From: Candidatus Microgenomatus sp.
GTDB lineage: Bacteria > Patescibacteriota > Minisyncoccia > UBA6257 > GWB1-50-10
Length of the DNA stretch: 64,000 bases
Direction of reading: 5' to 3'
Assembly (NCBI GenBank): GCA_020724805.1
Contig: DYGI01000001.1
Span: 175,157 to 239,156, forward strand
Shown here: positions 9,187 through 50,554 of the stretch, in pieces
Layout: every line of letters begins with the position of its first letter
How positions within the stretch are numbered: position 1 is the first letter of the stretch
Notes under the pieces: model-generated
Told to the model about the DNA's origin: nothing
Database searches by the model: none
The model's input: only the letters and a program-made list of their open reading frames with translations
Made by a program: the position numbers and the translations under genes

Positions 9187-10482
9187 ATGAAATCTTTCTA
9201 CATGGATTACGCCGCGGCGACGCCGGTGGACCCTCGCGTATTTGGCGCGATGCGTCCGTATTTTGATATGAAGTTCGGGAACCCCGGCTCCCTCCATGCG
9301 CGCGGAGCGGAAGCTCTCGCCGCGCTTGATAGCGCGCGCGAAACGGTTGCGCACGCGATAGGGGAAGATTTTCGAAACGTGGTGTTCACTGCGTCCGCGA
9401 CGGAGGCGAATAATCTCGCGCTCCGTGGCGTGGTGCGCGGGTATAAAGACTTGGGTTCAGGGTCTAGGAAAAAAAATTCTCTAACCCCTAACCCCCACAC
9501 CCTAACTCCTCGGATCGTTGTTTCTGCGGTGGAGCATGATTCGGTACTTGAAACGGCGCGGGATATGGAACATGCGGGCGAGGCGGAAGTGGTAATAATT
9601 CCCGTCGATAAAAAAGGAGCGGTGGACCTCAAGAAGCTGGAAGCGGCGCTCGACGAAAGGACCGCGCTTGTGTCGGTGATGTACGTCAATAATGAACTTG
9701 GCACGGTGCAGCCGATAGCTGAGATTGCGGAAATCGTCCGCCGTCACAAGTCGCCAGTGAATGGTTATCCGTTATTTCACACCGATGCAGCGCAGGCGTT
9801 TCTATACTACCCATGCAATCTCAAAGAACTTGGAGTGGATCTGATGACGCTCTCCTCGCAAAAAATATATGGACCGAAAGGCGCAGGCGCGCTGATATTA
9901 GGGAATAGGGTTCAGGGTCTAGGGTCTAGAAAAGAGAGTTCCCTAATCCCGAGTCACTATGCTCTAGCCCCCATCCTTACGGGGGGCGGTCAGGAATTCA
10001 ATCTCCGTGCCGGTACGGAAAATGTGCCGGCGATAGTGGGGCTTGGTATTGCCGCGGGGCTCGCCGAAAAGGAGCGCTCAAAAAACTTTACCAGAACCGA
10101 AAAGGTTCGTGATGTTTTTGTGAGCGAGTTGAAACGCATGATTCCCGGCGCGGAAGAAAATGCACGAGGGGACGCGCCGCACATCGCAAATATCGCGTTC
10201 CCGGAAGGTATATCGGCGGAGGACCTCCTCGTGCTTTTCGACCGTGCGGACATCGCAGCGAGTCCTGGTGCGGCGTGCAGCGCGCGAGCGCTCACCCTCT
10301 CTCACGTGCTCCGCGCCATAGGAATTTCGGACGAGCGCATCACGCGGAGCATTCGCTTCAGTTTCGGCCGCGGTATCACCGAGAAAGACGCACGCGACGC
10401 GGCACGCGTAATCGGGAAAATCGTAACGTCGTTACCCGTTGCGAGCGGCGTTACCTTTTCAAGGAAAAATCGTAATATATAG
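9187..10482 (+). CDS. cysteine desulfurase (class V aminotransferase, IscS/NifS-like) carrying two in-frame repeat insertions
   Basis: ORF 9139 trimmed to M17 (SD aggag). MDYAAATPVDPRV, FTASATEANNLAL, LSSQKIYGPKGAGAL, GGGQEFNLRAGTENV, SPGAACSA align to IscS. Two segments (9451-9507, 9898-9972) are absent from canonical IscS. Confidence 0.8.
   Translation: MKSFYMDYAAATPVDPRVFGAMRPYFDMKFGNPGSLHARGAEALAALDSARETVAHAIGEDFRNVVFTASATEANNLALRGVVRGYKDLGSGSRKKNSLTPNPHTLTPRIVVSAVEHDSVLETARDMEHAGEAEVVIIPVDKKGAVDLKKLEAALDERTALVSVMYVNNELGTVQPIAEIAEIVRRHKSPVNGYPLFHTDAAQAFLYYPCNLKELGVDLMTLSSQKIYGPKGAGALILGNRVQGLGSRKESSLIPSHYALAPILTGGGQEFNLRAGTENVPAIVGLGIAAGLAEKERSKNFTRTEKVRDVFVSELKRMIPGAEENARGDAPHIANIAFPEGISAEDLLVLFDRADIAASPGAACSARALTLSHVLRAIGISDERITRSIRFSFGRGITEKDARDAARVIGKIVTSLPVASGVTFSRKNRNI
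9451..9507. repeat. palindromic TAGGG/CCCTAA-family repeat inserted in frame in the cysteine desulfurase (19 codons)
   Basis: ttgggttcagggtctagg-aaaaaaaattct-ctaacccctaacccccacaccctaact: left arm GGGTCTAGG, right arm CCTAACCC(n). Encodes LGSGSRKKNSLTPNPHTLT between the conserved GYK and RIVVSAVEH. Confidence 0.6.
9898..9972. repeat. second in-frame palindromic TAGGG-family repeat in the cysteine desulfurase (25 codons)
   Basis: ttagggaatagggttcagggtctagggtctag-aaaagagag-ttccctaatcccgagtcactatgctctagccccc. Shares gggttcagggtctagg with the first copy. Confidence 0.6.
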
Positions 10483-11283: not shown

Positions 11284-12493
11284 AAGAGAGGTTCTTACAC
11301 TCATCGTAATTGCGGGAATAACGGGAGGCGCGATTGGAGGCGCGATGGCGCCTTCCTTCGTGTCCGCCAGTTTCCTGGACGATATAAAAACATTTTTCGG
11401 CATCCCGACGCCGGTACCCGAGGAGCCGAGTCCCGCGCCAAGTCCCACCGTACCTCTCTACAAGCCGGTCATCGATTATGAAGAAGCAGTGGTGAGCGCG
11501 GTAGAAACCGCAACGCCCTCAGTGGTGTCCATTGTTATCTCCAAAGATGTGCCGGTTATCGAACGATGCCCCTACGATCCCTTTGGCGATCTCCCTCCCG
11601 AGTTCCGCGATTTCTTCGGAGGAGGATTCGAAGGATTTTACGCGCCATGCGAGCGCGGTACCGAACGCCGTGAAGTAGGCGGCGGCTCCGGTTTCATCGT
11701 GTCTTCGGACGGGCTTGTGGTGACGAATAAACATGTGGTGGCTGACACATCCGCGGACTACACCGTATTTACGAGTGACGGAAAGAAATACGACGCGGAG
11801 GTGATAGCGCGCGATCCGTTGCAGGACCTCGCGGTTCTTAGAATCCCCGGGGCCGGATTTACGTCGGCGAAGCTCGGCAATTCCGACTCGTTGAAACTCG
11901 GTCAGACCGCGATTGCGATAGGGAATTCGCTCGGCGAGTTTAAAAACACGGTCTCGGTGGGCGTTATTTCCGGCCTTGCGCGGAACATCACCGCGTCTGG
12001 CGAAGGATTCGGCACCGAACTTATTCAGGGCGTCATCCAAACCGATGCGGCCATCAACCCAGGGAATTCCGGCGGCCCCCTTCTGAATCTCAAAGGGGAG
12101 GTGATAGGTATCAATGTGGCAACCGCCTCGGGCGCCGAGAATATCGGATTTGCCATTCCCGTAAACCGCGCGAAGCGCGCGATAGAGTCCGTGAAACGGA
12201 CCGGCACCATCGAGTCACCGTACCTTGGCATACGCTATGTGATGACCGAAGAAGGAGCGCGGGTGGGGGGCACGAAAGAAGGTCCCGGGGTTATCCCGAA
12301 TTCTCCGGCGGCTGCGGCTGGTATCCGCGCGGATGACCTTATAGAGAAAATGAATGGCGAGCAGTTGAACGAAGAAAACCCGCTCGGTGCGGTCATCCAG
12401 AAATATGGCGTAGGGGATACGGTGACGCTTACGGTGAAGCGGGGAGAGGAAACGCTCGCGATTCCCGTAACGCTCGGGAAGCGTCCCGAGTGA
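11270..12493 (+). CDS. HtrA/DegP-family serine protease with C-terminal PDZ domain
   Basis: GSGFIVSSDGLVVTNKHVV (His box), DLAVL (Asp), GNSGGPLLNLKGEVIGINVA (Ser box), then PDZ-like GIRADDLIEKMNGEQL. Confidence 0.85.
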   Translation: MKFGKREVLTLIVIAGITGGAIGGAMAPSFVSASFLDDIKTFFGIPTPVPEEPSPAPSPTVPLYKPVIDYEEAVVSAVETATPSVVSIVISKDVPVIERCPYDPFGDLPPEFRDFFGGGFEGFYAPCERGTERREVGGGSGFIVSSDGLVVTNKHVVADTSADYTVFTSDGKKYDAEVIARDPLQDLAVLRIPGAGFTSAKLGNSDSLKLGQTAIAIGNSLGEFKNTVSVGVISGLARNITASGEGFGTELIQGVIQTDAAINPGNSGGPLLNLKGEVIGINVATASGAENIGFAIPVNRAKRAIESVKRTGTIESPYLGIRYVMTEEGARVGGTKEGPGVIPNSPAAAAGIRADDLIEKMNGEQLNEENPLGAVIQKYGVGDTVTLTVKRGEETLAIPVTLGKRPE

Positions 12494-12593
12494 GCATTAG
12501 TCCCGTTAGAAGTCGCGCTCGTCCGCGATTGTACTCAATCGGGACGAGTCCCTCGCGGGACCGCTGACGCGGCTACTTCTAACGGGATTAGCA
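12494..12593. repeat. 100-bp compound palindrome directly after the htrA stop
   Basis: Outer arms gcattagtcccgttagaagtcgcg / cgcggctacttctaacgggattagc. Inner hairpins ctcgtcc..ggacgag and gtccc-tcgc-gggac. Confidence 0.5.
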
Positions 12594-12635
12594 CTCGAGG
12601 TATGGTATTGCTAATTCATCGATTTTCGCTATCAT
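12588..12635 (+). promoter_or_regulatory. CIRCE-like inverted repeat overlapping a sigma70-like promoter upstream of clpB
   Basis: TTAGCACTC-gaggtatgg-TATTGCTAA (9/9 and 7/9 versus CIRCE TTAGCACTC-N9-GAGTGCTAA). TTGCTA-16nt-TATCAT promoter overlapping the right half. Confidence 0.4.
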
Positions 12636-12642
12636 AGAAGGG

Positions 12643-12696
12643 CATAGGGGATAGGGTCTAGAAATTTTCCTAACCCCTAAACCCTAAACCCTAATT
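12643..12696. repeat. TAGGG-family repeat with telomere-like (CCCTAAA)n arm in the clpB 5' UTR
   Basis: gcataggggatagggtctag-aaattttc-ctaacccctaaaccctaaaccctaa, ending 4 nt before the clpB ATG. Confidence 0.6.
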
Positions 12697-12699
12697 CTC

Positions 12700-15345
12700 A
12701 TGCCAAACTTTCATCGTTTCACCCTAAAAGCACAGGAAGCGTTGCAGGCGGCACAGGAACTTGTGGCGCGGTTGAATCATGGAGAGCTGAAAGGGCTTCA
12801 CCTTCTTGCTGCGCTTCTTGAGGATGAGTCGACGCTCGTGCGTCCGCTTCTCACACGCGGCCAAGTGGATCTCGCGTCGCTTGAAACGGAACTCGACACA
12901 AAACTTGCCGCACTCCCGAAGATAGTTTCGGCACATGGTGCGGTGGGCCAACTTTATCTTTCAACCGAGCTTATGCGGGTGCTTGACCGCGCGGCGGAAG
13001 CGGCGCGGCGGCAGAAAGACGATTTTATTTCGTGCGAGCACCTCGTACTCGCACTCCTCGAAGTTCCGGGGCCCGCGTCGGAACTTTTGACACGAATGGG
13101 AGCTCGCCGCGACACGCTTTTTCGCACGCTCGCGGAGCTTCGGGGCTCCGTACGGGTTACCGACGAAACGCCGGAGACAAAATTCCAGGTGCTCGACAAA
13201 TATGCGGTGAACCTTACCGATAAAGCGAAAGAAGGAAAGCTGGACCCGGTTATCGGACGCGAGAATGAGCTTGAACGGGTGATGCAAATTCTCTCGCGCC
13301 GCACGAAGAACAACCCCATCCTTATCGGTGAACCAGGCGTGGGGAAAACCGCCATCGTGGAAGGATTGGCGCAGATGATCGTGGGCGGGAACGTTCCCGA
13401 ATCCCTGAAGGAAAAAGAGATCGTGATGCTCGACATCGGCTCGCTCATCGCCGGCACAAAATTCCGAGGAGAATTCGAGGATAGACTGAAGGCATTTTTG
13501 AAGGAGCTCCAAAATGCTCAAGGGCGCATCATCCTTTTCATCGACGAGATCCACATGATCGTAGGCGCCGGTGCCGCGGAAGGCGCGGTGGACGCCGCGA
13601 ACCTTTTGAAACCCGCGCTCGCGCGTGGCGAGCTTCACGCGATAGGCGCGACGACGTTCAAGGAATATCAGAAGCACATCGAAAAAGACCCCGCGCTCGA
13701 ACGCAGATTCCAGCCGGTCACGGTGGAGGAACCGACCCTCGAGGATTCCATTTCCATACTTCGGGGACTCAAGGAAAAATACGAAACGCATCACGGCCTT
13801 CGTATCACGGACGATTCGCTTGTGGCGGCAGTGGAACTTTCGGCGCGTTATATCACGGACCGATTTCTTCCCGACAAAGCGGTAGACCTTATCGATGAGG
13901 CGGCAGCGGCGCGGCGATTGGAATCCGACAGCGTACCTTCGGAACTTTCCAAAGTTCGCAAAGAACTTACGCGCCTCGAGATCGAGCGCGCGGCGCTCGA
14001 GAAGGAAGGGACGAAAGGTCCGCGCATAAAGGCGTTGCAAAAGGAAATTGCGAAACTCAAAGAACGCCACGAAGGACTCGCGGCGGAATGGCACACCGAG
14101 AAGTTGGTGTTTGAAAATCTTCACACGTCACGGAAGAAAATCGAGGATTTGAAACGGACGGCCGAAAAAGCGGAACGCGAGGGAGATTTGGAGAAGGTAG
14201 CTCAAGTTCTCTACGGCGAATTGCCGGAGGCGGAAAAGCAATACCACACGTTCGAGCGACGGTATGCGGGCGCGTCGAAAAAGCCCGCGAAGGGAAGCAA
14301 AGTGCCGCATTTCATACGGGAAACGGTGGAGAAAGAAGATATCGCCGCAGTGGTAGCGCGGTGGACCGGTATCCCGACCGCGAAGATGTTGGAGTCCGAA
14401 CTCGAAAAACTTTCTCGCATCGAAGACGTGCTCGAGAAGCGTGTGGTGGGACAGCGTGAAGCGGTCTCGGCCGTGGCGCGTGCGCTCCGCCGCTCAAGGG
14501 CGGGACTTGCGGACGAGGATAGGCCCGCGGGCTCATTCATGTTCCTGGGGCCCACCGGGGTGGGAAAAACGGAGCTTGCGCGCACTCTTGCGGAGTTCAT
14601 GTTCAACGATGAAAAGGCGCTTATCCGCATCGATATGTCGGAATATATGGAGCGACATGCGGTCGCGCGCCTCATTGGGAGCCCTCCGGGATATGTGGGG
14701 CACGAAGAGGGGGGACAATTGACCGAGCTGGTACGTCACCGGCCCTACTCGCTCATCCTTTTCGATGAGATAGAAAAGGCGCACCCCGAGGTCTTCAACA
14801 TTCTTCTCCAGATGTTGGACCACGGGCGTTTGACCGACGGCAAGGGGAAGCACGTGAATTTCAAGAACGCCATCATCATTCTCACTTCGAACGTCGGGAG
14901 TGAGTATTTCCGCGAGATGTCCGGGGTTGGTTTTGCGGCGGCGAACGAGGAAGAGTTCCTTCTTAAAGAAGAGCAATTTCGTGATAAGGTATGGGAGGCC
15001 CTCAAAGACACTTTCAAACCGGAATTTCTGAACCGTTTGGACGAGGTGGTTATATTCAACGCGCTTTCGCCGAAAGAAGTGGCGCGCATCGTAGATATCC
15101 AGCTCGCGCGTCTTGGGGTTCGGCTTGCGAAAAAAGGCATCACGCTTGCGGTGCGCCCGGAGGTACGCGAATATCTTGTGGCGCACGGATTCGACCCTGA
15201 TTATGGCGCGCGTCCGGTGAAGCGCCTCATCGAAAAAACCATCGTGGATGCGCTCGCGGACCGGATGGTAAAAGGCAATGTACCCCATGGAAAGAAAATT
15301 ACCGTTTCGCTTACCAAGTCAGACCGCGTGGCGGTCATCGGCTAG
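12700..15345 (+). CDS. clpB: ATP-dependent chaperone ClpB
   Basis: 881 aa. Clp-N repeats, two AAA+ modules (GEPGVGKTAIVEGLA; GPTGVGKTELARTLA), long middle coiled-coil, sensor-2 GARPVKRLIEK. Confidence 0.95.
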   Translation: MPNFHRFTLKAQEALQAAQELVARLNHGELKGLHLLAALLEDESTLVRPLLTRGQVDLASLETELDTKLAALPKIVSAHGAVGQLYLSTELMRVLDRAAEAARRQKDDFISCEHLVLALLEVPGPASELLTRMGARRDTLFRTLAELRGSVRVTDETPETKFQVLDKYAVNLTDKAKEGKLDPVIGRENELERVMQILSRRTKNNPILIGEPGVGKTAIVEGLAQMIVGGNVPESLKEKEIVMLDIGSLIAGTKFRGEFEDRLKAFLKELQNAQGRIILFIDEIHMIVGAGAAEGAVDAANLLKPALARGELHAIGATTFKEYQKHIEKDPALERRFQPVTVEEPTLEDSISILRGLKEKYETHHGLRITDDSLVAAVELSARYITDRFLPDKAVDLIDEAAAARRLESDSVPSELSKVRKELTRLEIERAALEKEGTKGPRIKALQKEIAKLKERHEGLAAEWHTEKLVFENLHTSRKKIEDLKRTAEKAEREGDLEKVAQVLYGELPEAEKQYHTFERRYAGASKKPAKGSKVPHFIRETVEKEDIAAVVARWTGIPTAKMLESELEKLSRIEDVLEKRVVGQREAVSAVARALRRSRAGLADEDRPAGSFMFLGPTGVGKTELARTLAEFMFNDEKALIRIDMSEYMERHAVARLIGSPPGYVGHEEGGQLTELVRHRPYSLILFDEIEKAHPEVFNILLQMLDHGRLTDGKGKHVNFKNAIIILTSNVGSEYFREMSGVGFAAANEEEFLLKEEQFRDKVWEALKDTFKPEFLNRLDEVVIFNALSPKEVARIVDIQLARLGVRLAKKGITLAVRPEVREYLVAHGFDPDYGARPVKRLIEKTIVDALADRMVKGNVPHGKKITVSLTKSDRVAVIG

Positions 15346-16018
15346 CGCGCTCGCCCTCGCGCTCATTTCGCTTTGGCTTGCGGCCGGGGAATTCGGGGTC
15401 GGCTCATTTGTCCTTTTCGCGCTTGCGCTCGGCGCATTGACGCTCCAATTTTCAGAATGGCGTCGCGTGCGATTCTCGTGGTATGCGCTTACGCTGGTGA
15501 GCGGTATATTGTTTTCTCGCGCGACCCCGATGCTTATGGCGCCGTGGTTCGAGGCGGCGCTTGTGGGCGCGCTTAGCGCACTTCTTTTTCTTTCCGCCGC
15601 GGCGCTTCGTGATCCGCACCGTATCATTCCCCGCGTGCTTACCGTGACGCTCACGCTCCTCGCCGCGTTCCTCTTTTTCCGCGATTCATCGTGGCTCACA
15701 TTCGCGGTGTTTATATTGGTTACGGCACTCACCGCACGCGATGAGGCGCGCTCATGGGGCGCGCTTCGGGTGGGGGAAGGGAAGCTCATGGGCGCCGCGG
15801 TGGCGCTTGTGGGCGCCGAACTCGCCGCGTTCATCGGTTTACTCCCCCTAGGGTCCGCGCGTGCAGCGGCGCTCGCCGCATTCGTGCTTCTTTTGGTCCG
15901 CGAGGGGCTTTCCGAAGCCCTCCAAGGCGGACTCCGCCCGGTGGTCCTGTTCCGCGGTCTCGCCGTGTTTTTTACGTGCGCGGTGCTTCTCTTTGCATCA
16001 GTACATTGGGGAGTCTAG
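15287..16018 (+). CDS. hypothetical polytopic membrane protein
   Basis: ORF 15278..16018 (246 aa), Ala/Leu-rich with at least 6 hydrophobic helices. Overlaps the clpB 3' end by about 60 nt in another frame, so the start is uncertain. Confidence 0.35.
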   Translation: MERKLPFRLPSQTAWRSSASALALALISLWLAAGEFGVGSFVLFALALGALTLQFSEWRRVRFSWYALTLVSGILFSRATPMLMAPWFEAALVGALSALLFLSAAALRDPHRIIPRVLTVTLTLLAAFLFFRDSSWLTFAVFILVTALTARDEARSWGALRVGEGKLMGAAVALVGAELAAFIGLLPLGSARAAALAAFVLLLVREGLSEALQGGLRPVVLFRGLAVFFTCAVLLFASVHWGV

Positions 16019-16040
16019 GGACTAGGGGATAGGGTATAGT
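16015..16040. repeat. TAGGG-rich inverted repeat, left flank of the four-helix-bundle gene
   Basis: tctagggactaggggatagggtatag. Partner at 16396-16428 in inverse orientation. Confidence 0.5.
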
Positions 16041-16046
16041 GAAAGA

Positions 16047-16406
16047 GTGAAAAGCCACCGGGAGTTGGAAGTTTGGAAAAGAAGCATGGAACTCGTAAAG
16101 AAAGTCTACGAGCTTACCAGTAAATTTCCCCCATCAGAGACGTGCGGAATCATAAGTCAAATCCGCCGTGCCTCCGTTTCTATTCCTTCGAATATCGCAG
16201 AAGGATATCAGCGTGGCTCTCGAAAGGAATATTTGAATTTCATAAGAATCTCTTTTGGATCTGGTGCAGAGCTCGAAACACAGCTTGAGTTGGCAAAAGA
16301 GCTTTCGTTAGCGCCCTCGAAGGATTTTGAGGTCCCAGAGCAACTTCTCAATGAGGCTATGCGGATGCTGAATGGACTTATCCACAGCCTCGCTTCTAGG
16401 CCCTAG
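16047..16406 (+). CDS. four-helix-bundle protein (23S rRNA intervening-sequence protein family)
   Basis: 119 aa, GTG start. ELEVWKRSMELVKKVYELTSKFPPSETCGIISQIRRASVSIPSNIAEGYQRGSRKEYLNFIRISFGSGAELETQLELAK matches the conserved core of this family. Confidence 0.8.
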   Translation: MKSHRELEVWKRSMELVKKVYELTSKFPPSETCGIISQIRRASVSIPSNIAEGYQRGSRKEYLNFIRISFGSGAELETQLELAKELSLAPSKDFEVPEQLLNEAMRMLNGLIHSLASRP

Positions 16407-16428
16407 CCCCTATACCCCAGTCCCTATC
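16396..16428. repeat. TAGGG-rich inverted repeat, right flank of the four-helix-bundle gene
   Basis: ctaggccctagcccctataccccagtccctatc. Reverse complement gatagggactggggtataggggctagggcctag mirrors the left flank modules. Confidence 0.5.
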
Positions 16429-16652
16429 TTCTTCCGTAACTACGAGGGGGATTTCTTCGTTTTATCTGATGAGCGCGGAAAAACTTGAGTTTTTCGGCGT
16501 TTCCTAGTACCTTAGTCAGTAGACAGTGTCCGTAGCTTTCAGTGTGAGGCTGAAAGATATGGGACCGGGAGAAAGTGCCGCAGAACGCACGAAATGAACG
16601 TTCCGCGGTGTCGCCTTATCGTAAGGCGGGCTTTCTTTCGTGGTTCCATCAC

Positions 16653-16687
16653 CCTCGCACCGAAATGCGAGGTTTTCTGTTTTTTCC
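16653..16687 (+). terminator. rho-independent terminator/attenuator within the long leader upstream of the giant surface-protein gene
   Basis: cctcgca-ccgaaa-tgcgagg then ttttctgttttttcc. Confidence 0.55.
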
Positions 16688-16874
16688 AATCAATATCGTC
16701 CTTTTCCCGTCCTCCGTGCCTCCGATCCTCACTAGGTTGGTACACGTCGAAACAGGGTGGGGGAAGCATCCAGAAACTCGTAAAGGTCGAAACATACGAA
16801 AATATGTTTGGTCGATTATCCTTCGACAGACTCAGGATAACCCTGAGTGAAATCGAAGGGTTACAACTACAGAA

Positions 16875-19800
16875 ATGAACAAATCATTCAAGAAAGTTGC
16901 GTCCATAGGGCTCTCGCTTTCAACAGCGGTGTACCTCTTTGGAGCCGCGGCGATTCCTGCAGGGGCACAAACCACTGCGGATCTCCAGGCCCAAATTGCG
17001 GCCCTTTTGGCGCAGATCAATGCATTGCAATCCCAACTCGCGGCGCAGTCTGGCGGTGGTGCCGTTGCGTCTTCGTACAGTTTTACCCGCAACCTCACGG
17101 TGGGTTCGACTGGCGCTGACGTGCGTGCCCTCCAACAGTGGCTGAACGCGAATGGGTATCAAGTTTCCGCGAGCGGCGCCGGTAGCCCCGGCAACGAGAC
17201 GCAGTACTTCGGTCCCGCGACTCGCACAGCCCTCGCAAAGTATCAGGCAGCGGTGGGAATTTCCCCTGCGGCAGGGTACTTCGGTCCTATCACTCGCGCA
17301 CGCGTAAGCGCCGCGGGCGGTACGACCACCCCAGGCACGGGGCCGGTGGTTATCCCTTCATCGGGTCTCCAGGTGAGCCTCGCGTCTGACAGTCCTTCCG
17401 CGGCCGTGGCGCCTCTCGGTGCCGCCGGCGTGGTGTTTGCGAAGTTCAATGTGGCCGGCAGCGGTACGTTGGACGGCATCACCTTCAAGCGGATGGGCGT
17501 TGGTGGCACCGGCGACTTCGCCGCAAGCGGTATTTACCTCTACGAGGGAAACACTCGCTTGACGACGGGCCGGAGCATCAACTCCACGAGCCACGAGGTC
17601 TCGTTCCTTAACCTCGGTCTTTCGATCTCTGGCGTGCGGACCCTCTCGCTTGTCGCGGACATTTCGTCCTCCGGCCAAGCGGGGAACCGCAACCACTTCG
17701 AGTTGGTCTCCGCGTCCGGTACGCCGACCCCTTCGGGGACGGTGATCGGCCGTGATATCACTCTCGCGGGCCAGTCTGTCGGAAGCGTCACCGCGACGAG
17801 CGGTGCGGCACCTTCCAACCCCAAAGTGGGTCAGGTTGGCGCCAAAGTCGCCGAGTTCATGCTTCAAGCAGGCTCGACGGAAGACATTGAGATCCGCCGT
17901 ATTGCACTCACGGAAGGCGGCTCCATCGCGAACTCGTACCTCACGAACTTCCAGTTGAAGTACGCGGGGAACGTAATCGCGACGGCCTCCGGTGTGGGCG
18001 CGAAGGATCTTGTGTCGTTCGAAATGGCGACCCCGTTCCTCTTGGAAAAGGGTCAACAGCGCACGTTCGAGGTGTACGCTGACATCGGTGGTGGCGCACG
18101 TTCGGCAGACACGATCGTGTTCTACTTCGACAGCAAGGCGGACATCTACGCGATCGGTAAGACCTACGGATACCCCGTGGATCCGACGATCACCGCGCTT
18201 GACGCTACTTCGGACGGTGACACGCTGACCCTCTCGGGCGGCGACATCACCATCACCTTCAACGGTCCTATTGCGGGCGACGTAGCGCTCCGCGGTCAGG
18301 ATGTGACGGTGTATGACTTCACGATTGCGTCCCTCAATAACATTGAGATCCGCAACCTTCGTTTCCACGCTACCACGACTGGTATGACGGCGAACGAAGG
18401 CTTCACGGATTTCAAGGTATGGGATGCGACGGCGAACAGTGTTGTCACGAGCGCGACCGACGTTACGACCTCGACGGATGTGACCTTCACGGATGTGTTG
18501 AACATCAGCGCGGGTCAGTCGAAGAGGTTTAAGGTGACGGTGGACATCGACTCGGACAACGACGACACGACGGACACGCTCCTTGTGTCGCTCCTTGCGT
18601 TCCAAGCGAACGACATTCGGAACTTGGACAACAACACGTACGTGGCAACCTCGGTTATCGTGCCGAACAGCACGGTTTCGGGGAACACGATGACGGTGAA
18701 GGCGCCGGCGTTGGACATCCAACTCTCGGCAACGCCGTCCTCGCAGACGTATGTGAAGGGTACGCAGAACGTGGACTTGGTCGGGTTGAGCTTCCGGGCA
18801 GTATCTTCAAATGTCCGCTTGAGCTCGGTCCGCATCACAGCAACCGCGTCCTCGGGCACCCTGACCTCGGGCGAAGTCACCAGCCTCGGCCTCTACGACG
18901 GCGCGAGCTTGGCGGGGAACTCCACCGTAGAATCGCTCGACACGTCGAACTTGAACGCGACGTTCGACAACATCAACGTGGTTATCCCGATGGGTACGAC
19001 GAAAGTGTTCACCGTTCGCGGTAACATCTCGTCCGACACCACGGTGGGTGACACGTTCTACTTCTACCTCGCGACTGCGACAGCGAACGATGTGACTGCC
19101 TACGACTCCGAAGGGAACGCGGTAAACCTCCAAGGGACCGCGGCGAACTCCGGTGGTACGGTCATCGCATCGGTGGCGAACGTGGGTGACGTGACGGTGG
19201 CGAAAGCCGCCGACGACTCCGACTCCGAAGCCGGCATCATAGTGGCGGGTCGTGAGCAGACGCTCGCGAAGTTCCGCTTCACGGCGGCGAACGAGGCGGT
19301 GACAGTGAACAAGCTCCAGCTCCTTGTGGTGCCGACGAGCTCCGCAACGGCCACTTCCTCGGCTTCGGCTGATGAGGTACCGGTGGTGAAGCTTTACGAT
19401 GGTTCCAACCAGATCGGTAACACGTCCGGGTACACGGTCCAGGCATCGGGTGACAACTCCGGTGTCGTCGTGATCGAGAACCTCGGATGGGGTATCGGTA
19501 AGGATGCTTCGAAGACCCTCACGGTAAAGGGAGTGTTGAACTCCACTTCCGGTGGGGCGGACTCTGGCGCTTCGGTGTACGTAAGCGTGATGAGCTCCGG
19601 CTTTGAGGCACAGGGCGCGACAGCGAAGGACACCACGATCACGGCTGCGACGGCAAACCAGAAGGTGGTCTACAAGACGAAGCCCACCATCTCGGTTGCG
19701 GCAGGCGACACTACGCTTACGACCGGCCTCCGCAAGGTGATGAAATTCACCGTGGCGGCGGACTCGGCTGAGCAGGTGGCGTGGAAGAAGATGCAACTTG

Positions 19801-25344: not shown

Positions 25345-26492
25345 GATTTTTTAGCCAGGATGGCATCGTATATTCTCTCGAGTTTTGTTATATAGGTATC
25401 GATCGTAAATTCATCATTTACCATCTTTTTTCCTCTTGCCGACATCTGTTCTCGAGATTTAGGGTTCCGGATCATGTCCTCAATACCCTGTTGTAGGCCC
25501 CGAACGGAGCAGGGAACAACTGCCGCGGCTCGAGAAAAGACGTCTCGACTCGATAACGTATCGGTAATGATGGTAGGGACTCCAAGATACATAGCTTCGA
25601 GCGTCACCAAGGAAAATGATTCCATCCGCGAGCTTACTACAAAGAGATCCATGAGCGATATCCAGACCGGAACGTCTTTTTGATGGCCCGCAAACATCAC
25701 TTTATTTGATATTTCTAATCGCCGTGCCCGCTCTTTCAGCTCGGTAGTTTTGGGCCCGTCGCCAATGAGCATCAGGAAGGAATTGGGTGTCTTTTCCAAT
25801 ATCCGCTTAAATGATTCCAAGAGCAAATCGTATCCTTTTTCCCACGACATTCTCCCCACCGACCCGAGAACGAAGGCGCGGGGAGGCACGGAGAGGCGGC
25901 GGCGGTATTCCTCCTTGTCGAACTCTTTCGGTAACAGGAGACGCTGGGGATCAACCGCATTATGGAGAACGAACAATTTTTTTCCAGTCGATTCGGCCAC
26001 GCGCTTCAAATGCTCCGCTTTTTCTTCAATGGTCGCTATGAAGGCACCGACGAGCCACCGGTTAATGAAAAATCTCACGATCTTTCTCGAAAGCGGTTCC
26101 GGCATATCCGGGTTATGAACGTGCGATATCACCGGAATGCCGAGTCCGAACACCCCCATGCTTCCGTAAAAATCGCTTGCGAGTTGATGGGTGTGCACGA
26201 TGTCGGGTTCACACTCTTTTATGAGGCGTCTTACCGCAGAGATGTTCCCGAAAACATTTTTTATATTTCCGAGTCCCAAACGGTAGTATTCGATGCCCCC
26301 ATCTTCCAGCTCCTGTCCCATGGTGCCGTTCCCCATAAGTGAGCACACCATAGGACGGTACCGCTCGCTTTTTGCAAGGGTTTTGGCGGTATCCACTACC
26401 ATCCGTTCCACGCCTCCGGGGTCGAGAGTCGCGGTTATGATAAGAACGTTTCGTTTCATATCCTCGTGTTTAATGTGTATAGTGTAATCCAA
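25341..26492 (-). CDS. glycosyltransferase family 4 (GT-B fold)
   Basis: 383 aa. C-terminal ...FVVSSRMESFSLVTLEAMYLGVPTIITD E-x7-E-like donor-binding region. Confidence 0.75.
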   Translation of the reverse strand: MDYTIHIKHEDMKRNVLIITATLDPGGVERMVVDTAKTLAKSERYRPMVCSLMGNGTMGQELEDGGIEYYRLGLGNIKNVFGNISAVRRLIKECEPDIVHTHQLASDFYGSMGVFGLGIPVISHVHNPDMPEPLSRKIVRFFINRWLVGAFIATIEEKAEHLKRVAESTGKKLFVLHNAVDPQRLLLPKEFDKEEYRRRLSVPPRAFVLGSVGRMSWEKGYDLLLESFKRILEKTPNSFLMLIGDGPKTTELKERARRLEISNKVMFAGHQKDVPVWISLMDLFVVSSRMESFSLVTLEAMYLGVPTIITDTLSSRDVFSRAAAVVPCSVRGLQQGIEDMIRNPKSREQMSARGKKMVNDEFTIDTYITKLERIYDAILAKKS

Positions 26493-27706
26493 TGGAAAGT
26501 AATACCAAAAGGTACCGTATGGCCTTTTTGACCGGCCAGCCCATCGTCGATCAAGCTCCGCTATTTAGAAAACTTGCCGAGCATCCTCGCGTGGATCTGA
26601 CCGTCTATTTTTGTTGGGATACCGGCGCGGGTGAAGTGTCGTTCGATAAGCAGTTTGGCGTGGCGATCCGATGGGGCACCCCGCTCCTTGGGGGATACCT
26701 ACACAAGTTTTTGAGGAATTTTTCCCTCAAACCTTCCGATTCTTTTTGGGGGCAGGTAAATTTTGGCATCATCGTTGAGCTTTTCAGGAACCGCTACGAC
26801 GCCATCGTCATTCACGGATGGAACTCGTTCACTTATTGGTTGGTGTTTCTCGTCGCCCCCGTGTTGGGAGTTGATATTTTTCTCCGAGGCGAGAACCCAT
26901 TCAATCAAGAGATTCTGAAGTCTTCATGGAACTTAAGGATCAAGAGAGTCGTATTGGGGTGGTTATTCCGACGGGTAAGTGCCTTCCTTTACCTCGGAGA
27001 AGAGAACAAGAAGTTCTATGAATATTATGGAGTCCCAGCGGAAAAGTTGTTCTTTACTCCCTACGCGGTCGAGAATGATCGGTTTTTTGAACAGGCGCAG
27101 CTGCTACGAAGCGATAGGGAAAAATTGAAGAAAGAAATGGGTTTGTCGCCGGAAAGCGTGACCATCCTTTTTATGGGGAAACTCATAGACAAAAAAAGGC
27201 CTTTTGACGCAGTGAAAGCGTTGGAAATTCTCGCCAGTTCCTTTCCAAACCTACGCCTTTTAATGGTAGGTGACGGCTCACTCCGGCCGGCGCTTGCACA
27301 ATACATCACCGAGAAGAATTTGCGACAAATCGAACTTGTTGGATTTAAAAATCAGACTGAAATTCCCAGGTATTATGCGGTCGCTGACATTTTCGTGTTG
27401 CCATCCGGACCCGGAGAAACGTGGGGGCTTGTAGTGAATGAGGCAATGAATTTCGGCCTTCCGATTGTGATCTCGGACATTGTGGGGTGTGGTCCGGATT
27501 TAGTCCGTGACGGAAAAAATGGTTATCGGTACCCAATCGGGAACATAGAGGCGCTTGCTAAATCTTTAGAGAAACTTATTGAGAGTAAGGAAAGGCGTGA
27601 AGCGTTTGGGATAGAGTCACTAGAAAAAGTACAAGAGTATTCTTATAAAAAAGACATTGAAGGAATTCTGGAAGCGCTAGATTTTAGTTATGACGGAAAG
27701 AGGTAA
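26492..27706 (+). CDS. glycosyltransferase family 4
   Basis: 404 aa. VLPSGPGETWGLVVNEAMNFGLPIVISDIVGCGPDLVRDGKNGYRY. Confidence 0.8.
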   Translation: MESNTKRYRMAFLTGQPIVDQAPLFRKLAEHPRVDLTVYFCWDTGAGEVSFDKQFGVAIRWGTPLLGGYLHKFLRNFSLKPSDSFWGQVNFGIIVELFRNRYDAIVIHGWNSFTYWLVFLVAPVLGVDIFLRGENPFNQEILKSSWNLRIKRVVLGWLFRRVSAFLYLGEENKKFYEYYGVPAEKLFFTPYAVENDRFFEQAQLLRSDREKLKKEMGLSPESVTILFMGKLIDKKRPFDAVKALEILASSFPNLRLLMVGDGSLRPALAQYITEKNLRQIELVGFKNQTEIPRYYAVADIFVLPSGPGETWGLVVNEAMNFGLPIVISDIVGCGPDLVRDGKNGYRYPIGNIEALAKSLEKLIESKERREAFGIESLEKVQEYSYKKDIEGILEALDFSYDGKR

Positions 27707-28775
27707 TCTAAAAATTTTTCTTGTCGGTGACGTGCCACGACATGATGTAACACACGCCCAAAAAAGAGCGTTTGAAAGACTTGGATGTGAGGTCATCATC
27801 ATGGATCCCTCACAATATTATTTTATTAAATTATGGAACAGAGTTTTGAACCGATTTCTTGCCACGCTCGTCCGCTTTAAGAAGGAGTTAGGGATAAGGA
27901 TTTACTTCGGAGTTAAGAAACTGAACGAGGAAATCATAAAGGTTGCACAGGAAACCAAACCGCATTTTATTCTCATCCATAAACCAGTGCTGATTGAGCC
28001 TGGAACTGTAGAGAATCTTAAAAAGCTTGGCACAAAGGTTTTTACGTATTTTGCCGATGATATTCAGAATCCCTTAAGTGTGTCGCGGCGCCTTTATAAA
28101 GCGTTACCTCTATACGATGCCCACTTTACGAATAAGTCACACCAAATCGAGGATTTAAAGAAAATGGGAGGGAGAAAGGTGTTTTTTGTGTCGGCATCTC
28201 CCGACCTCGATTTTTACTATCCTGAGAAAATTTCCGAAGAAGAAAAAAAGAAATTGGGAGCCGACCTAGTCTTCATAGGGAATTGTTATGAAAAGTATAG
28301 AGCGGAGTTTTTAGAAAGGGTTTGTCGGTACGGATATAACATAAAAATATATGGTAGTTTATGGGATCGGCTCTCTAGCTGTAGATGTTTAAGGAAAAGT
28401 GGTAGCCTAATGTTGAGACCCGCGGAGGGGGACGATTATAGGCGGGTTATGAATTCCAGCAAAATAGCAATTGCACTTTTAAGTAAAATGAACAGAGACC
28501 AGCATACTCGTAGAACCTTCGAAATTCCTGCATGTGGTACTTTTATGCTTCACGAGAGGACACCAGAAGCAGTCAGTTTTTTTAAAGAAGGCGAGGAGGC
28601 AGAGTTTTTCAGTTCTTTCGATGAGTTGATAAAAAAAATTGACTACTATCTTAAACACGAGAAAGAACGAGGCAAAATAGCTGTTGCTGGCCTGAAGAAA
28701 GCGAGATCATATAAGTATTCATACCTCGCCAATGCCCAGAAGATGTTAAACGTCTACAAAACGTTAACGAAATAA
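27690..28775 (+). CDS. CgeB-like glycosyltransferase-family protein, putative
   Basis: 361 aa. Resembles the DUF3880 + Glyco_trans_1_2 (CgeB) architecture (LVFIGNCYEKYRAEFLERV...NSSKIAIALLSK...FEIPACGTFMLHE). Confidence 0.4.
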   Translation: MTERGNLKIFLVGDVPRHDVTHAQKRAFERLGCEVIIMDPSQYYFIKLWNRVLNRFLATLVRFKKELGIRIYFGVKKLNEEIIKVAQETKPHFILIHKPVLIEPGTVENLKKLGTKVFTYFADDIQNPLSVSRRLYKALPLYDAHFTNKSHQIEDLKKMGGRKVFFVSASPDLDFYYPEKISEEEKKKLGADLVFIGNCYEKYRAEFLERVCRYGYNIKIYGSLWDRLSSCRCLRKSGSLMLRPAEGDDYRRVMNSSKIAIALLSKMNRDQHTRRTFEIPACGTFMLHERTPEAVSFFKEGEEAEFFSSFDELIKKIDYYLKHEKERGKIAVAGLKKARSYKYSYLANAQKMLNVYKTLTK

Positions 28776-28778
28776 ATC

Positions 28779-29537
28779 ATGGAAAAGCAAAAAAGCGGCT
28801 ACAGAAATTTTCTTTTTTCCCGATACGTGTCTTCGGTAGTGAGGCCAGTTTTTGGCGAAACCTCGCTTAAAGAGATAGAACGGCAATTTCCAGTTTGGGA
28901 AGAATATTTTGGTCGTTTTTTTCCAGAAAATTCGGGAGTTGCGATTCTCGATCTTGCATGCGGCTACGGCTCCTTCATATTCTGGCTTCAGCGGAAGGGT
29001 TATCAAAACACCGAGGGTGTGGATATTAGTGATGAACAGGTGAATTATGCGAGAAAATTAGGAATTAAAGGGGTAACAAAAGGGGATGCAAGATTTTTTC
29101 TTGGCGATAAACACGAGAGATACGACATAATAGTTGCTCGAGATTTTATGGAACATCTCAATAAAGAAGAGGTGATAAGGGTGAGTTCCTATATCTTGAG
29201 TGCCTTAAAACCAGGAGGAATATTTCTCATGCAGGTTCCGAATGCAGAAAATTTAATGGGAGCGCGCTATCGTTATGGAGATTTTACCCATGAGGTAGGG
29301 TTCACTTCTCGATCAGCTCGTCAAGTACTCCTCGCTTCGGGTTTCAAATATGTGAGTGCATATCCGCAAAGACCCGTTATACGCGGCATAAAGTCCTTTG
29401 TAAGATATTTACTTTGGAGGGTAGTGGAGTTGATGTTGCACTTCTATCTTATAATCGAAAGCGGATCATCCGATGCTTTTTTTACACAAGATATTATTGT
29501 CAAGGCAGACAAGAGCGAACGGAAAAGCGAAGAGTAA
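28779..29537 (+). CDS. class I SAM-dependent methyltransferase
   Basis: 252 aa. Motif I ILDLACGYGSF, motif post-I DIIVARDFMEHL. Confidence 0.7.
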   Translation: MEKQKSGYRNFLFSRYVSSVVRPVFGETSLKEIERQFPVWEEYFGRFFPENSGVAILDLACGYGSFIFWLQRKGYQNTEGVDISDEQVNYARKLGIKGVTKGDARFFLGDKHERYDIIVARDFMEHLNKEEVIRVSSYILSALKPGGIFLMQVPNAENLMGARYRYGDFTHEVGFTSRSARQVLLASGFKYVSAYPQRPVIRGIKSFVRYLLWRVVELMLHFYLIIESGSSDAFFTQDIIVKADKSERKSEE

Positions 29538-29539
29538 AA

Positions 29540-30445
29540 ATGAAAAAAAAATTTATCGTAACAGGTGGGGCTGGATTTATAGGCTCCCATTTAGTAGATG
29601 CTATCATTGCGCGCGGTGACGAAGTGATTGTCATCGACAACCTTGCTACGGGGAAACGCGAGAACGTAAACCCAAATGCAAAATTTGTTCGAGTAGATAT
29701 TCGCAATTTTGAAGAAATCTTACCGCATTTTCATGGCGTAGATTTTGTGTTTCATGTTGCGGCGCTTGCGCGCGTTCAACCCTCTATAGAGGAGCCAAAA
29801 ACATTTCACGACGTTAACATTACTGGGACCCTTAATGTTCTTCTTGCTGCGAAAGAAGCTGGGGTGAAGAGGGTGATATATTCAGCTTCGTCGTCGGCGT
29901 ATGGAGATCAAAAAACCATGCCGCTCCGCGAAGATATGCCCGCAAATCCTTTGAGTCCCTACGGACTTCAAAAATATGTTGGGGAAATGTATTGCCGATT
30001 GTTTTCTAGAATATATGGCTTGCAAACTGTGAATCTGCGATATTTTAACGTTTACGGAGAACGTCAGCCGCTCGAGGGGGCATACTGTCTCGTGATGGGG
30101 ATTTTTATAAGACAGCGGCTTGCGGGCAAGCCGATGACTATTGTTGGCAATGGAGAGCAGAGACGCGATTATACCAATGTTGCGGACGTAGTAAGCGCCA
30201 ACCTGTTGGCTGTCGAGAGTAAAAACGTTGGTAATGGTGAGGTGATTAATATCGGGCGAGGTAGAAACTACACTGTTAATGAAGTGGCCGCAATGATTGG
30301 GGGGCCGACTACTAAACTTCCGCCACGTATAGAACCAATAGAGACTTTAGCAGACAACTCACTTGCGCGAAAACTTCTTAGGTGGGAGCCCCACATCAAC
30401 TTACCAGAGTGGATGGTGTCATACAAAAAAATAGTAGGACTGTAA
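29540..30445 (+). CDS. NAD-dependent epimerase/dehydratase (extended SDR; UDP-sugar epimerase or decarboxylase-like)
   Basis: ORF 29414 trimmed to MKKKFIVTGGAGFIGSHL (Rossmann GxxGxxG). YSASSSAYG, catalytic YGLQKYVGE (YxxxK). Confidence 0.85.
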   Translation: MKKKFIVTGGAGFIGSHLVDAIIARGDEVIVIDNLATGKRENVNPNAKFVRVDIRNFEEILPHFHGVDFVFHVAALARVQPSIEEPKTFHDVNITGTLNVLLAAKEAGVKRVIYSASSSAYGDQKTMPLREDMPANPLSPYGLQKYVGEMYCRLFSRIYGLQTVNLRYFNVYGERQPLEGAYCLVMGIFIRQRLAGKPMTIVGNGEQRRDYTNVADVVSANLLAVESKNVGNGEVINIGRGRNYTVNEVAAMIGGPTTKLPPRIEPIETLADNSLARKLLRWEPHINLPEWMVSYKKIVGL

Positions 30446-30455
30446 CACTCCCACG

Positions 30456-31133
30456 GTGAATATAGAAAAATTCCGAAACAAGCAAGGGAAAATTTGGCTT
30501 AACGTTGCCTCCTCGGTTTATGCTTTGGCTGAGTTTGTTAATTTAGACAACAGCGTATTTCTTCAATTTTCAGACATACTTTATATACTGCGCCCCCTCA
30601 TCCCTGGAAAGTATCATGAATGGATTACAAAGTATAAAAATTTAAAAAAGAGCAAGCTTTTTTTAATACACGACTGCCGAAAACCACTTCCTTTCCCAAA
30701 CTCTTCCGTGGACCATGTATTGTGTTCGGATTTCCTCGAGCACGTCTTTCCAAAGGAGGCGGAAGAAATTGTCGGTGATTTTCACCGGGTATTAAAGGAT
30801 GGCGGTACATTGCACATCGTGGTGCCAAACCTCACGTGGATGGTTGAAGAATATCTAGAAAAGAAAAAGAGCAAGACGTCGAACGCCGCCGATTGGTTTA
30901 TCGCAGAAACCATATTAAGTCGAAAAACTCGAGGTTCCTTAAAATATAGAATTCTCGAATTTTTTGGCGCCTTCGGGTTGCAGCATTACTGGATGTACGA
31001 CGACGATTCCATGAAGATGTTGCTTGATAAATTTGGATTCAAAATAGTGGAGGAAAAAAATTTTCCAAGCAAAAACTATCGTGCTGGTATAGATTACAAA
31101 AGCAAGGCCGTCGAAGTCTTTGCTCAAAAGTAA
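30456..31133 (+). CDS. class I SAM-dependent methyltransferase (type 11-like)
   Basis: 225 aa. VDHVLCSDFLEHV...VLKDGGTLHIVVPN. Confidence 0.65.
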   Translation: MNIEKFRNKQGKIWLNVASSVYALAEFVNLDNSVFLQFSDILYILRPLIPGKYHEWITKYKNLKKSKLFLIHDCRKPLPFPNSSVDHVLCSDFLEHVFPKEAEEIVGDFHRVLKDGGTLHIVVPNLTWMVEEYLEKKKSKTSNAADWFIAETILSRKTRGSLKYRILEFFGAFGLQHYWMYDDDSMKMLLDKFGFKIVEEKNFPSKNYRAGIDYKSKAVEVFAQK

Positions 31134-32276: not shown

Positions 32277-32342
32277 ATCTAATTTATTTTACATAAAGCA
32301 CAAGAATAAACCAACAGCCAATAACTTTGGAGGGCGAGTCTC

Positions 32343-33848: not shown

Positions 33849-33922
33849 GTACTGACCAGGCTCCTTTTTATGTTATTTGTGTAAAAAGTGCGTTTTTATT
33901 TCATGCGTGATACTTTAGAATT

Positions 33923-35918: not shown

Positions 35919-35924
35919 TTAATC

Positions 35925-38527: not shown

Positions 38528-38596
38528 AAATTTCGTTTCAATATATCAAACTCGTCGCAATTTAGCAAAATCGAAGTGTTGATTATATCCCTTGGT

Positions 38597-43318: not shown

Positions 43319-43352
43319 CTAGAGTATAGGGTTTGGTGATTAGGGTCTAGTG
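43319..43352. repeat. TAGGG-family repeat copy in the divergent promoter region between the sugar transferase and dsbA-like genes
   Basis: tagagtatagggtttggtgattagggtctagtg. Confidence 0.45.
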
Positions 43353-43375
43353 AAGAAAATGCAGGGGTTGACTTT

Positions 43376-50517: not shown

Positions 50518-50538
50518 ACCCATTACCCATTACCCATT
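50518..50538. repeat. (CCCATTA)x3 tandem heptamer in the rpsU promoter region
   Basis: cccattacccattacccatta, preceded by TTGACC. Confidence 0.5.
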
Positions 50539-50554
50539 ACTCTTTACCATTGTT

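Follow-up and report, generated by a model that had tools for sequence, protein, structure and literature searches.

We found that a telomere-like CCCTAAA tract just upstream of the chaperone gene clpB, in a 64,000-nucleotide stretch of a Candidatus Microgenomatus genome (contig DYGI01000001.1, positions 175,157 to 239,156; hereafter the window), is the C-rich arm of a 58-nucleotide (nt) imperfect palindrome at 12637-12694, which we named E3. In our judgement it is rather probable that this hairpin, of the form (nTAGGGn)3-4 - loop - (nCCCTAn)4, is a gene-less solo copy of a family with inverted heptad (7-nt) arms, whose full form encloses a gene of the PF05635 family. The window was the genome sequence available to the analysis, and all positions refer to it unless a relative is named. 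The palindrome and the gene behind it are arranged as follows.

12637 to 12661, plus strand: left (G-rich) arm of E3, gAAGGGca TAGGGga TAGGGtc TAG
12662 to 12669, plus strand: loop of E3, AAATTTTC
12670 to 12694, plus strand: right (C-rich) arm of E3, the telomere-like tract, CTAAccc CTAAacc CTAAacc CTAA
12700 to 15345, plus strand: clpB (881 amino acids; Pfam domains AAA_2, ClpB_D2-small and Clp_N), with a start (MPNF...) conserved in relatives

The string quoted in the original prediction is present, but slightly displaced: gcataggggatagggtctag starts at 12642 instead of 12643, the final ...ccctaa ends at 12694 instead of 12696, and the gap to the clpB ATG (at 12700) is 5 nt (ttctc), not 4 nt. 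That prediction had recognised both arms, but overlooked the 7-nt register, the copies in coding sequence and the link to a four-helix-bundle gene. Tandem Repeats Finder (TRF) reports a 7-nt unit in 3.7 copies with 94% matches at 12669-12694. The TAGs of the left arm (12645, 12652 and 12659) cover all three frames, as do the TAAs of the right arm (12671, 12678, 12685 and 12692). Folding predicts -24.9 to -25.5 kcal/mol for the hairpin (z = -2.7 to -3.8 relative to dinucleotide shuffles), and in the predicted RNA the TAGGG/CCCTA cores form helices of 3-5 bp, while the spacers form 2x2 internal loops.

The window carries at least five TAGGG heptad elements, E1 to E5, and the dispersed, CTAG-containing repeat family that had been proposed from the sequence is thereby borne out. 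The other members are the following.

9451 to 9506, plus strand: E1, palindrome in frame within a cysteine desulfurase open reading frame (ORF; 9139/9199-10482), encoding ...LGSGSRKKNSLTPNPHTLT...
9899 to 9972, plus strand: E2, second in-frame palindrome of the same ORF, TAGGGaa TAGGGtt CAGGGtc TAGGGtc TAG ... CCCTAat...
16016 to 16043, plus strand: left arm of E4, TAGGGac TAGGGga TAGGGta TAGTGaa
16396 to 16426, plus strand: right arm of E4, CTAggcc CTAgccc CTAtacc CCAgtcc CTA
43320 to 43354, plus strand: E5, solo G-arm array in a divergent intergenic region, TAGAGta TAGGGtt TGGTGat TAGGGtc TAGTGaa

The arms of E3 and E4 share the TAGGG core. E5 begins at a distance of 8 nt from 43312, where a sugar transferase gene of the minus strand has its start codon, and the leaderless-type promoter of a DsbA-like gene (ATG at 43403) is downstream of it. 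A matrix built from the 34 units of all copies holds 1.1-2.0 bits at each of positions 1-5 (TAGGG) and only 0.17-0.27 bits at the 2-nt spacer, showing a family with a conserved 5-nt core, a strict period of 7 nt and a free spacer. Compared with shuffled sequences, CCCTAAACCCTAA with up to two mismatches matches nine times (0.92 expected), and TAGGGNNTAGGG with up to one mismatch matches 22 times (1.5 expected), with all matches clustered. The telomere-like 13-mer and the TAGGG-N2-TAGGG pattern lie 10- to 15-fold above the shuffled expectation. Arrays with at least 17 of 21 self-matches occur in the window at a lag of 7 nt only (three arrays), with none at lags of 5, 6, 8, 9 or 10 nt and none in shuffles. 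The avoidance of CTAG noted earlier also holds in the window, with 44 occurrences against 247 expected from base composition (a depletion of about 5-fold), and the heptad elements, which take up 319 nt or 0.5% of the window, contain 11 of these 44.

Two perfect CCCTAAA units followed by CCCTAA do recall a plant-type telomere (TTTAGGG)n, and genuine telomeric or eukaryote-derived DNA, or an assembly chimera, would be one way to account for them. However, the tract has 2.9 units, fewer than four, inside a contig, instead of a long uniform array at an end, and lies between htrA and clpB at about 236 kb in the interior of the 570,864-bp Joint Genome Institute (JGI) metagenome contig Ga0246236_1000004. 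The other arm of the palindrome has GA and TC spacers, sister spacers being GA, TC, AC and TA, and the flanks are collinear with two related genomes. The likeness to a plant telomere is thus coincidental, CCCTAAA being the variant whose spacer happens to be AA in the 34-unit matrix. A chimera, which the original prediction had feared, is disfavoured because three independent assemblies (JGI 3300029893, JGI 3300029892 and Logan SRR13164376) agree at every one of the 241 nt around the tract. This reading retains practically no probability and is already refuted. Separately, the JGI 3300029892 and Logan SRR13164376 contigs (L002 and L003) both end exactly at window position 12332, inside htrA, and this shared break hints at strain variation or a repeat there.

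The G3 tracts, recurring at a 7-nt period in arrays of about four units as in the repeats of Rehm et al. (PMC4692102), raise the possibility of a G-quadruplex or i-motif element, which would act through non-B DNA or RNA structure like the GGGNATC repeats of Xanthomonas and Nostoc. Of the four canonical G-quadruplex motifs of the window, three do lie in sister copies, in the left arm of E2 and in both arms of E4 (9901-9924, 16008-16034 and 16401-16424 by regular expression). The check on G-quadruplex propensity suggested earlier came out negative at the tract itself, where the same scan finds no canonical four-tract motif at 12637-12694: E3 has three G3 tracts per strand. Its complementary arm is 8 nt away, and the duplex of -25 kcal/mol would outcompete a quadruplex. 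Moreover, the related families of the relatives have TAGGC, TAGAAAT or TCCTAAA units, without G tracts. We consider this reading very improbable.

By its homologues, the window belongs to Parcubacteria/CPR (Candidate Phyla Radiation), close to Candidatus Brennerbacteria and Jorgensenbacteria. The setting of E3 at clpB was compared with two close and fully syntenic relatives, L164 (a bin from SRR5581857) and L165 (Candidatus Brennerbacteria GCA_016183535.1), whose ClpB proteins are 90.8% and 85.2% identical, respectively, to the window protein. Upstream of E3 the window has an operator resembling the controlling inverted repeat of chaperone expression (CIRCE) and a promoter.

12588 to 12614, plus strand: CIRCE-like operator TTAGCACTC-N9-TATTGCTAA, overlapping the -35 box TTGCTA
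12608 to 12635, plus strand: predicted clpB promoter of sigma-70-like type, TTGCTA-16-TATCAT (-35 box 12608-12613, -10 box 12630-12635)

The placement of the tract in the clpB 5' untranslated region therefore stands, as it lies inside the predicted leader, downstream of this promoter and operator. In the sister genome L164, the corresponding site reads htrA-TGA-cgg-TTAGCACTC-N9-GATTGCTAA-15 nt-TATAAT-catcac-ATG. The CIRCE operator overlaps the promoter, and the -10 box is 6 nt from the ATG, a leaderless arrangement. The window has the L164 layout plus two extra blocks, an element at 12501-12587 and the heptad hairpin, the latter between the -10 box and the clpB ATG. Deleting 12637-12694 from the window yields TATCAT-a-ttctc-ATG and so regains the 6-nt spacing. 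Because the L164 site is empty (CIRCE, -10 box, 6 nt, ATG), this comparison shows E3 as an insertion between the predicted -10 box and the ATG of a clpB gene that would ancestrally have been leaderless, or nearly so, under a CIRCE-type operator.

The hairpin itself does not fit the CIRCE/HrcA consensus TTAGCACTC-N9-GAGTGCTAA, and the CIRCE-like site at 12588-12614 is separate from it. At least 11 related contigs have a CIRCE-like site ahead of clpB, a perfect match in the case of L030, and the more distant L005, L007, L008 and L009 have CIRCE and a short leader without the hairpin. The conserved element upstream of clpB in relatives is the putative CIRCE operator, not the heptad hairpin. Shine-Dalgarno motifs occur at only 6 of 57 crudely called gene starts in the window. 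Leaderless transcripts may be widespread here, as suggested by TAnnnT hexamers, whose frequency peaks 6 nt upstream of start codons. Given this rarity and this peak, a clpB gene without a Shine-Dalgarno sequence is normal for this genome, and the ancestral clpB mRNA was probably leaderless. A leaderless-type example is TTGACT-16-TACGAT-7 nt-ATG at 43403 (43377-43405), and further genes that exemplify these start features lie at 10513, 27690 and 54956.

At the same clpB position, L165 carries a larger, nested heptad palindrome, (TCCTAAA)4 ... (AAATCAC)4 ... (TTTAGGA)4, and heptad arrays with other units are found at the clpB leaders of L004, L015, L021, L011 and L033. In the L165 leader (13515-13713 of that sequence), an inner palindrome (AAATCAC/…TTTGG…) is nested in the loop of an outer one (TCCTAAA/TTTAGGA), which indicates that such elements insert into each other.

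The two copies in coding sequence show how the family changes. The cysteine desulfurase ORF reads through both E1 and E2, each of which adds about 15-17 residues, at two positions that are empty in some homologues; the predicted peptides are LGSGSRKKNSLTPNPH and GLGSRKESSLIPSH. In each copy the unit whose TAG would be in frame has a sense codon instead (TTG at 9451 in E1 and CAG at 9913 in E2), and the remaining TAGs are out of frame. The reading frame thus shows that the copies are tolerated and, by prediction, translated in this gene, with exactly the in-frame TAG changed to a sense codon. L164 and L165 have orthologues of both insertions, with the same flanks, register and CAG unit, and L165 has a shorter copy at site 1, so that unit number varies. 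The core of both copies is TAGGC/GCCTA in L164 and L165 and TAGGG/CCCTA in the window, and this change alters the encoded peptide from QALG to QGLG. With L164 as sister and L165 as outgroup, the change must therefore have occurred in the window lineage, where it affected, at both loci, the fifth position of essentially all units along with the pairing partner. The arms of E3 and E4 have the derived TAGGG core too. Judged from these alignments, the core switched in concert and with pairing preserved across dispersed copies. Independent neutral mutation does not explain such a switch, which calls for some agent that recognises the core and homogenises or selects the copies.

Cysteine desulfurases of other Parcubacteria (376-513 amino acids; L009, L015, L019, L035, L047 and L058) have hypervariable insertions at the same four or five hot spots. 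Many of these are translated heptad arrays with genome-specific units, seen as TRF arrays inside genes. Other peptide families also recur in the insertions, for example ...NSKLETRNPKQT...SDLEFKASGL...

The full form of the family is represented in the window by E4, a cassette 3.3 kb downstream of the clpB tract.

16086 to 16406, plus strand: 23S rRNA-intervening-sequence-protein / four-helix-bundle gene (PF05635, E = 5e-37), enclosed by the arms of E4

The gene has an alternative GTG start at 16047, and its TAG stop lies within the right arm. The called gene is the 106-residue ATG form, and an exact look-up of the 119-residue product of the GTG start gave no match. The first TAG of the left arm is the stop codon of the upstream ORF (15278-16018). 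In both minimum-free-energy and centroid folds of 16008-16436, the arms pair into a stem of 24-26 bp that encloses the complete PF05635 ORF. L165 has no such cassette (about 16019-16431 in the window) at its collinear site: its upstream ORF stops at a TAG in the matching codon, and 13 nt later the conserved flank TTCCGTAAC resumes.

In the Parcubacteria set, inverted heptads stand on both sides of each of the four PF05635 genes. We fetched 80 PF05635 loci from GTDB genomes (CPR, Bacteroidota, Proteobacteria, Clostridia, Planctomycetota, Acidobacteriota and others), of which 78 were scored by aligning the upstream 130 nt to the reverse complement of the downstream 130 nt, with mismatched flanks as controls. 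The median inverted-repeat score is 26.5 versus 15 in the controls, and 31 of the 78 loci exceed the 99th percentile of the controls. The best lag within a flank is 7 nt for 49 of 78 upstream and 39 of 78 downstream flanks, compared with 16 of 149 distal controls, and 8 nt comes second. In genomes outside CPR, a lag of 7 nt is best in 29 of 49 and 30 of 49 flanks, as against 16 of 57 in other intergenic DNA of the same loci. TAG-type units are in the majority upstream (24 vs 7), as CTA-type units are downstream (16 vs 6), the upstream units typically being TAG(G/C)... on the sense strand, and one Terriglobia locus has window-like TAGGGAC/TAGGGGC arms. These flanks show that PF05635 genes across many phyla are bracketed by inverted period-7 arrays.

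A sense-strand bias towards G.U wobble pairs in these stems, hinted at by L066 and L015, was tried and rejected. Over 50 loci there are 61 mismatches of the G.U type and 65 of the A.C type (p = 0.79), and thus no evidence of pairing selected specifically in the sense RNA.

Two published cases place heptamers beside such a gene. In Coxiella, the intervening sequence (IVS) of 23S rRNA has two or three GACAGAT heptamers, depending on the strain, just before the S23p ORF, and the first of these repeats is the site of RNase III cleavage (PMC4990558). In Xanthomonas campestris, four GGGAATC units form an array that overlaps with the start of XCC0516 (PMC4692102 supplement). The XCC0516 protein, PDB 2GSC, is a homologue of the window PF05635 protein, and the 2GSC structure has five chains. 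The bAvd proteins are pentameric. In the open-access literature, we found the link between PF05635/S23p and heptamers only as a remark on Coxiella, and no description of palindromic insertions in CPR genes; neither is proof of novelty.

Local replication slippage or template switching could in principle have made such arrays independently, as simple sequences that are neither mobile nor related as a family. Among long simple sequence repeats in bacteria, heptamers are the classic case of over-representation (MacGregor introduction, PMC4679880), and unit number does differ between orthologous copies, as at site 1 of L165 and among the Coxiella strains. On the other hand, slippage fits poorly with one core at five separate loci, always with the G-arm before the C-arm, or with a complete palindrome at clpB where the site of the sister genome is empty. 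The core switch is concerted across loci, and the arrays systematically bracket one gene family across phyla. Slippage is therefore an improbable explanation.

The placement of the arrays was surveyed in 937 kb, comprising the window and related loci, with TRF arrays of at least 2.8 copies and heuristic gene starts. Period 7 forms a sharp peak, with 128 arrays, as against 37 and 50 for periods 6 and 8. Typical heptad arrays have 4.4-4.7 units, which are lineage-specific and often occur as inverted pairs. Among arrays of a stricter definition, 52% are inside coding sequence (72% of random positions), 23% are start-proximal (7%) and 13% are stop-proximal (5%). The window has two more arrays of this sort, with other units.

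50518 to 50548: (ACCCATT)x4.4, a different heptad unit without an inverted partner, filling the gap from a stop codon to the ATG (50556) of the ribosomal protein S21 gene (rpsU)
63383 to 63414: period-7 array GATCATT GATTATT AATTATT GACTATG, from the stop of ORF 62671-63387 into the ATG at 63412, with TGA/TAA in all three frames

Such placement raises the alternative that E3 is a dedicated cis-regulatory site, at which a multimeric factor on the mRNA (or on single-stranded DNA) controls translation or stability, with clpB in a post-transcriptional regulon together with the PF05635 gene and other genes that have start-proximal arrays. Beyond the start-proximal excess in the Parcubacteria loci, the distance between array end and start codon is 0-8 nt for four arrays of the window (at clpB, at the minus-strand gene starting at 43312, at rpsU with its ATG at 50556, and at the ATG of 63412), and heptad palindromes also occupy the clpB leaders of L165, L004, L015 and L021. 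A conserved core with a free spacer is the pattern expected of a binding site, the concerted core switch fits co-evolution with a binder, and Shine-Dalgarno sequences are rare here, as in the TAACTGA case (PMC4679880). Yet clpB of L164 has the same CIRCE promoter and no element, and the units at the same gene vary between genomes. Half of the arrays lie inside coding sequences, the same family stands in frame within a housekeeping enzyme, and no binder is known. We regard a dedicated site as unlikely, and infer that E3 is not a dedicated clpB regulator.

Two specific forms of regulation were rejected. An RNA thermometer of the ROSE or fourU type would block the Shine-Dalgarno sequence or AUG and open at physiological temperatures, but in folds from 10 to 85 °C the hairpin is predicted to remain unchanged from 10 to 75 °C, and the AUG is unpaired (at least 0.92 for its region at all temperatures). 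The CtsR operator has the consensus (A/G)GTCAAA-NAN-(A/G)GTCAAA and lies upstream of clp genes in Firmicutes. The units here are TAGGGnn, the element is absent at the sister clpB, and the same units occur in coding sequence and around an unrelated gene. At the gathering threshold, Rfam finds tRNAs only in the window and no rRNA, and a permissive Rfam scan of 12450-12760 gave chance-level matches only.

Returning to the solo copy of a heptad family as the favoured explanation, a trans-acting and core-specific process would keep the family uniform, either through a factor that binds or processes the copies or by their conversion from a master. The only candidate agent suggested by linkage would be the PF05635 protein, with a rather low probability. 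At clpB, transcription from the CIRCE promoter would produce E3 as a very stable stem-loop at the 5' end of the mRNA, made of 5-bp helices with 2x2 internal loops, and the predicted stem ends 7-8 nt before the unpaired AUG. The insertion may have turned a leaderless clpB mRNA into a leadered one without a Shine-Dalgarno sequence. A likely outcome would be altered 5'-end-dependent mRNA decay or RNase III processing, as in IVS stems, together with some cost or control on initiation at clpB.

Several observations weigh against this explanation. The link to the PF05635 gene is correlative, with one such gene in the window and none in the fetched DNA of L164 and L165 (14 and 21 kb). No target-site duplication is visible for the heptad element when the window is compared by eye with the L164 empty site, a region that MAFFT misaligns, and no transposase was found for heptad elements, although the genome outside the window was not searched for one. 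The copies are only moderately alike outside the core, so that recent transposition is not shown, and other heptad units, such as the ACCCATT array at 50518, share the genome. Finally, the repeated occupation of the clpB site by the palindromes of L165, L004, L015 and L021 could reflect function or target preference, not neutral insertion.

The heptad element is no sequence member of any described family, but it resembles several in kind. With the heptameric arrays (GGGNATC, TAACTGA and STRR, the short tandemly repeated repetitive sequences) it shares a unit of exactly 7 nt in multiple copies at dispersed loci, start- or stop-proximal placement and stop codons in all frames. None of the described units (GGGAATC, GGGGAYT, TAACTGA, CCCCAGT...) matches TAGGGnn, which indicates a different family of the same kind. 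STRR heptamers were reportedly described in cyanobacteria by Mazel et al. in 1990. The GGGNATC repeats of Xanthomonas and Nostoc have a 7-nt unit with a G3-4 tract and a preference for about four units, are dispersed mostly near ORF ends, and include about 70 'convergent' inverted pairs per Xanthomonas genome that are able to form stem-loops (Rehm et al. 2015, PMC4692102). Its authors saw no connection with mobile elements, and the association with PF05635 is not mentioned there. In contrast to those repeats, the family here has a conserved TAG, a free spacer, no fourth G tract in E3 and in-frame coding copies. The TAACTGA repeats of Beggiatoaceae, Cyanobacteria and Bacteroidetes occur as 2-6 units ending a few nt upstream of starts, with stops in three frames and no canonical ribosome-binding site, and a translational regulator site has been proposed (MacGregor 2015, PMC4679880). 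They are almost always direct (one inverted in 170) and keep one unit sequence across taxa, whereas the arrays here form inverted pairs with lineage-specific units that switch in concert.

The rRNA IVS with an S23p ORF, known from Coxiella and Leptospira, has terminal inverted repeats and a long stem around its PF05635 ORF; the stem is an RNase III substrate, and these sequences are regarded as selfish elements (PMC4990558). The cassette at 16016-16426 shares this architecture, including the stem around the ORF, and E3 corresponds to its ORF-less form. Unlike the rRNA IVS, the cassette lies between protein-coding genes and not in helix 25 or 45 of 23S rRNA, and gene-less copies occur in a 5' leader and in coding sequence. 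Repetitive extragenic palindromic (REP) sequences, their REPIN forms and the associated RAYT gene provide another model of short dispersed palindromes, which also stand on either side of a single gene (Bertels and Rainey 2011, PMC3116915). As with REP/REPIN and Correia-type MITEs (miniature inverted-repeat transposable elements), the copies here are homogeneous within a genome and divergent between genomes, and transcribed hairpins of this type alter mRNA fate. But the flanked gene here matches only PF05635 and bAvd, not a Y1 transposase, there is no target-site duplication, and the arms are internally periodic, which those of REPs and MITEs are not. Terminal inverted repeats and multiple copies without coding capacity are shared with MITEs, while a target-site duplication and a transposase-bearing parent are missing. 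E1 and E2 are also reminiscent of the Rickettsia palindromic elements, which are said (Ogata et al. 2000) to stand in frame in conserved protein genes and to be translated as extra surface peptides; E1 and E2 are likewise in frame and predicted to be translated. Those elements are 100-150 bp long, not heptad-periodic and restricted to Rickettsia, whereas coding and non-coding copies evolve in concert here.

A broader proposal, tentative and rather unlikely, is that PF05635 and Avd-like four-helix-bundle proteins are the trans-acting partners of bacterial heptamer arrays. The cassette with arms of about 4-5 units would then be the master or autonomous copy, solo arrays and hairpins would be targets or derivatives, and protein and core would co-evolve, which would explain the switch from TAGGC to TAGGG. 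Heptamer repeats have been on record since 1990 (STRR) or 2015 (TAACTGA and GGGNATC) with no mechanism attached to them, and the PF05635 'S23p / four-helix-bundle' family is abundant with no known role outside the Avd of diversity-generating retroelements. If the proposal is true, STRR, TAACTGA and GGGNATC repeats and rRNA IVSs, decades without a mechanism, would be tied together, and an orphan family would gain a function. The comparative handle offered here consists of a filled and an empty site at a heat-shock promoter, orthologous coding copies with a concerted switch, and a bracketed gene family across phyla. A causal link would make the origin and function of heptamer repeats testable; otherwise the finding shrinks to an ordinary dispersed repeat in a 5' leader. 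The insertions in the cysteine desulfurase and at clpB also show that the ultra-small genomes of CPR can bear repeats which invade essential enzymes and leaderless promoters.

The other block that distinguishes the window from L164 is a separate element next to the CIRCE site.

12501 to 12587 (region 12497-12591): MITE-like element of 87 nt between the htrA stop and CIRCE, with terminal inverted repeats TCCCGTTAGAAGT / ACTTCTAACGGGA and a duplicated TTAG flank

This element, absent from the L164 empty site, has a TTAG target-site duplication, in contrast to the adjacent heptad hairpin, which has none. The same 12-mer arms are found as inverted pairs in three other Parcubacteria contigs (L016, L046 and L047, in the last case inside the cysteine desulfurase gene). 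Direct repeats at the ends can be read by eye in three of the four copies (TTAG in the window, TGAA in L016 and TGGA in L047), L046 being unclear.

Two further regions of the window drew our attention. A block of about 440 nt upstream of a 1142-residue PG_binding_1 gene is strongly conserved between the window (16432-16875) and L165 (17118-17562). It is non-coding, as judged from its long invariant runs and 1-nt indels, and Rfam gives no match for it, even at E <= 1; possibly it is a structured RNA or leader that has not been described. The G+C content is 0.41-0.49 at 26000-40000 and about 0.55 elsewhere in the window, and this segment may be an acquired region.

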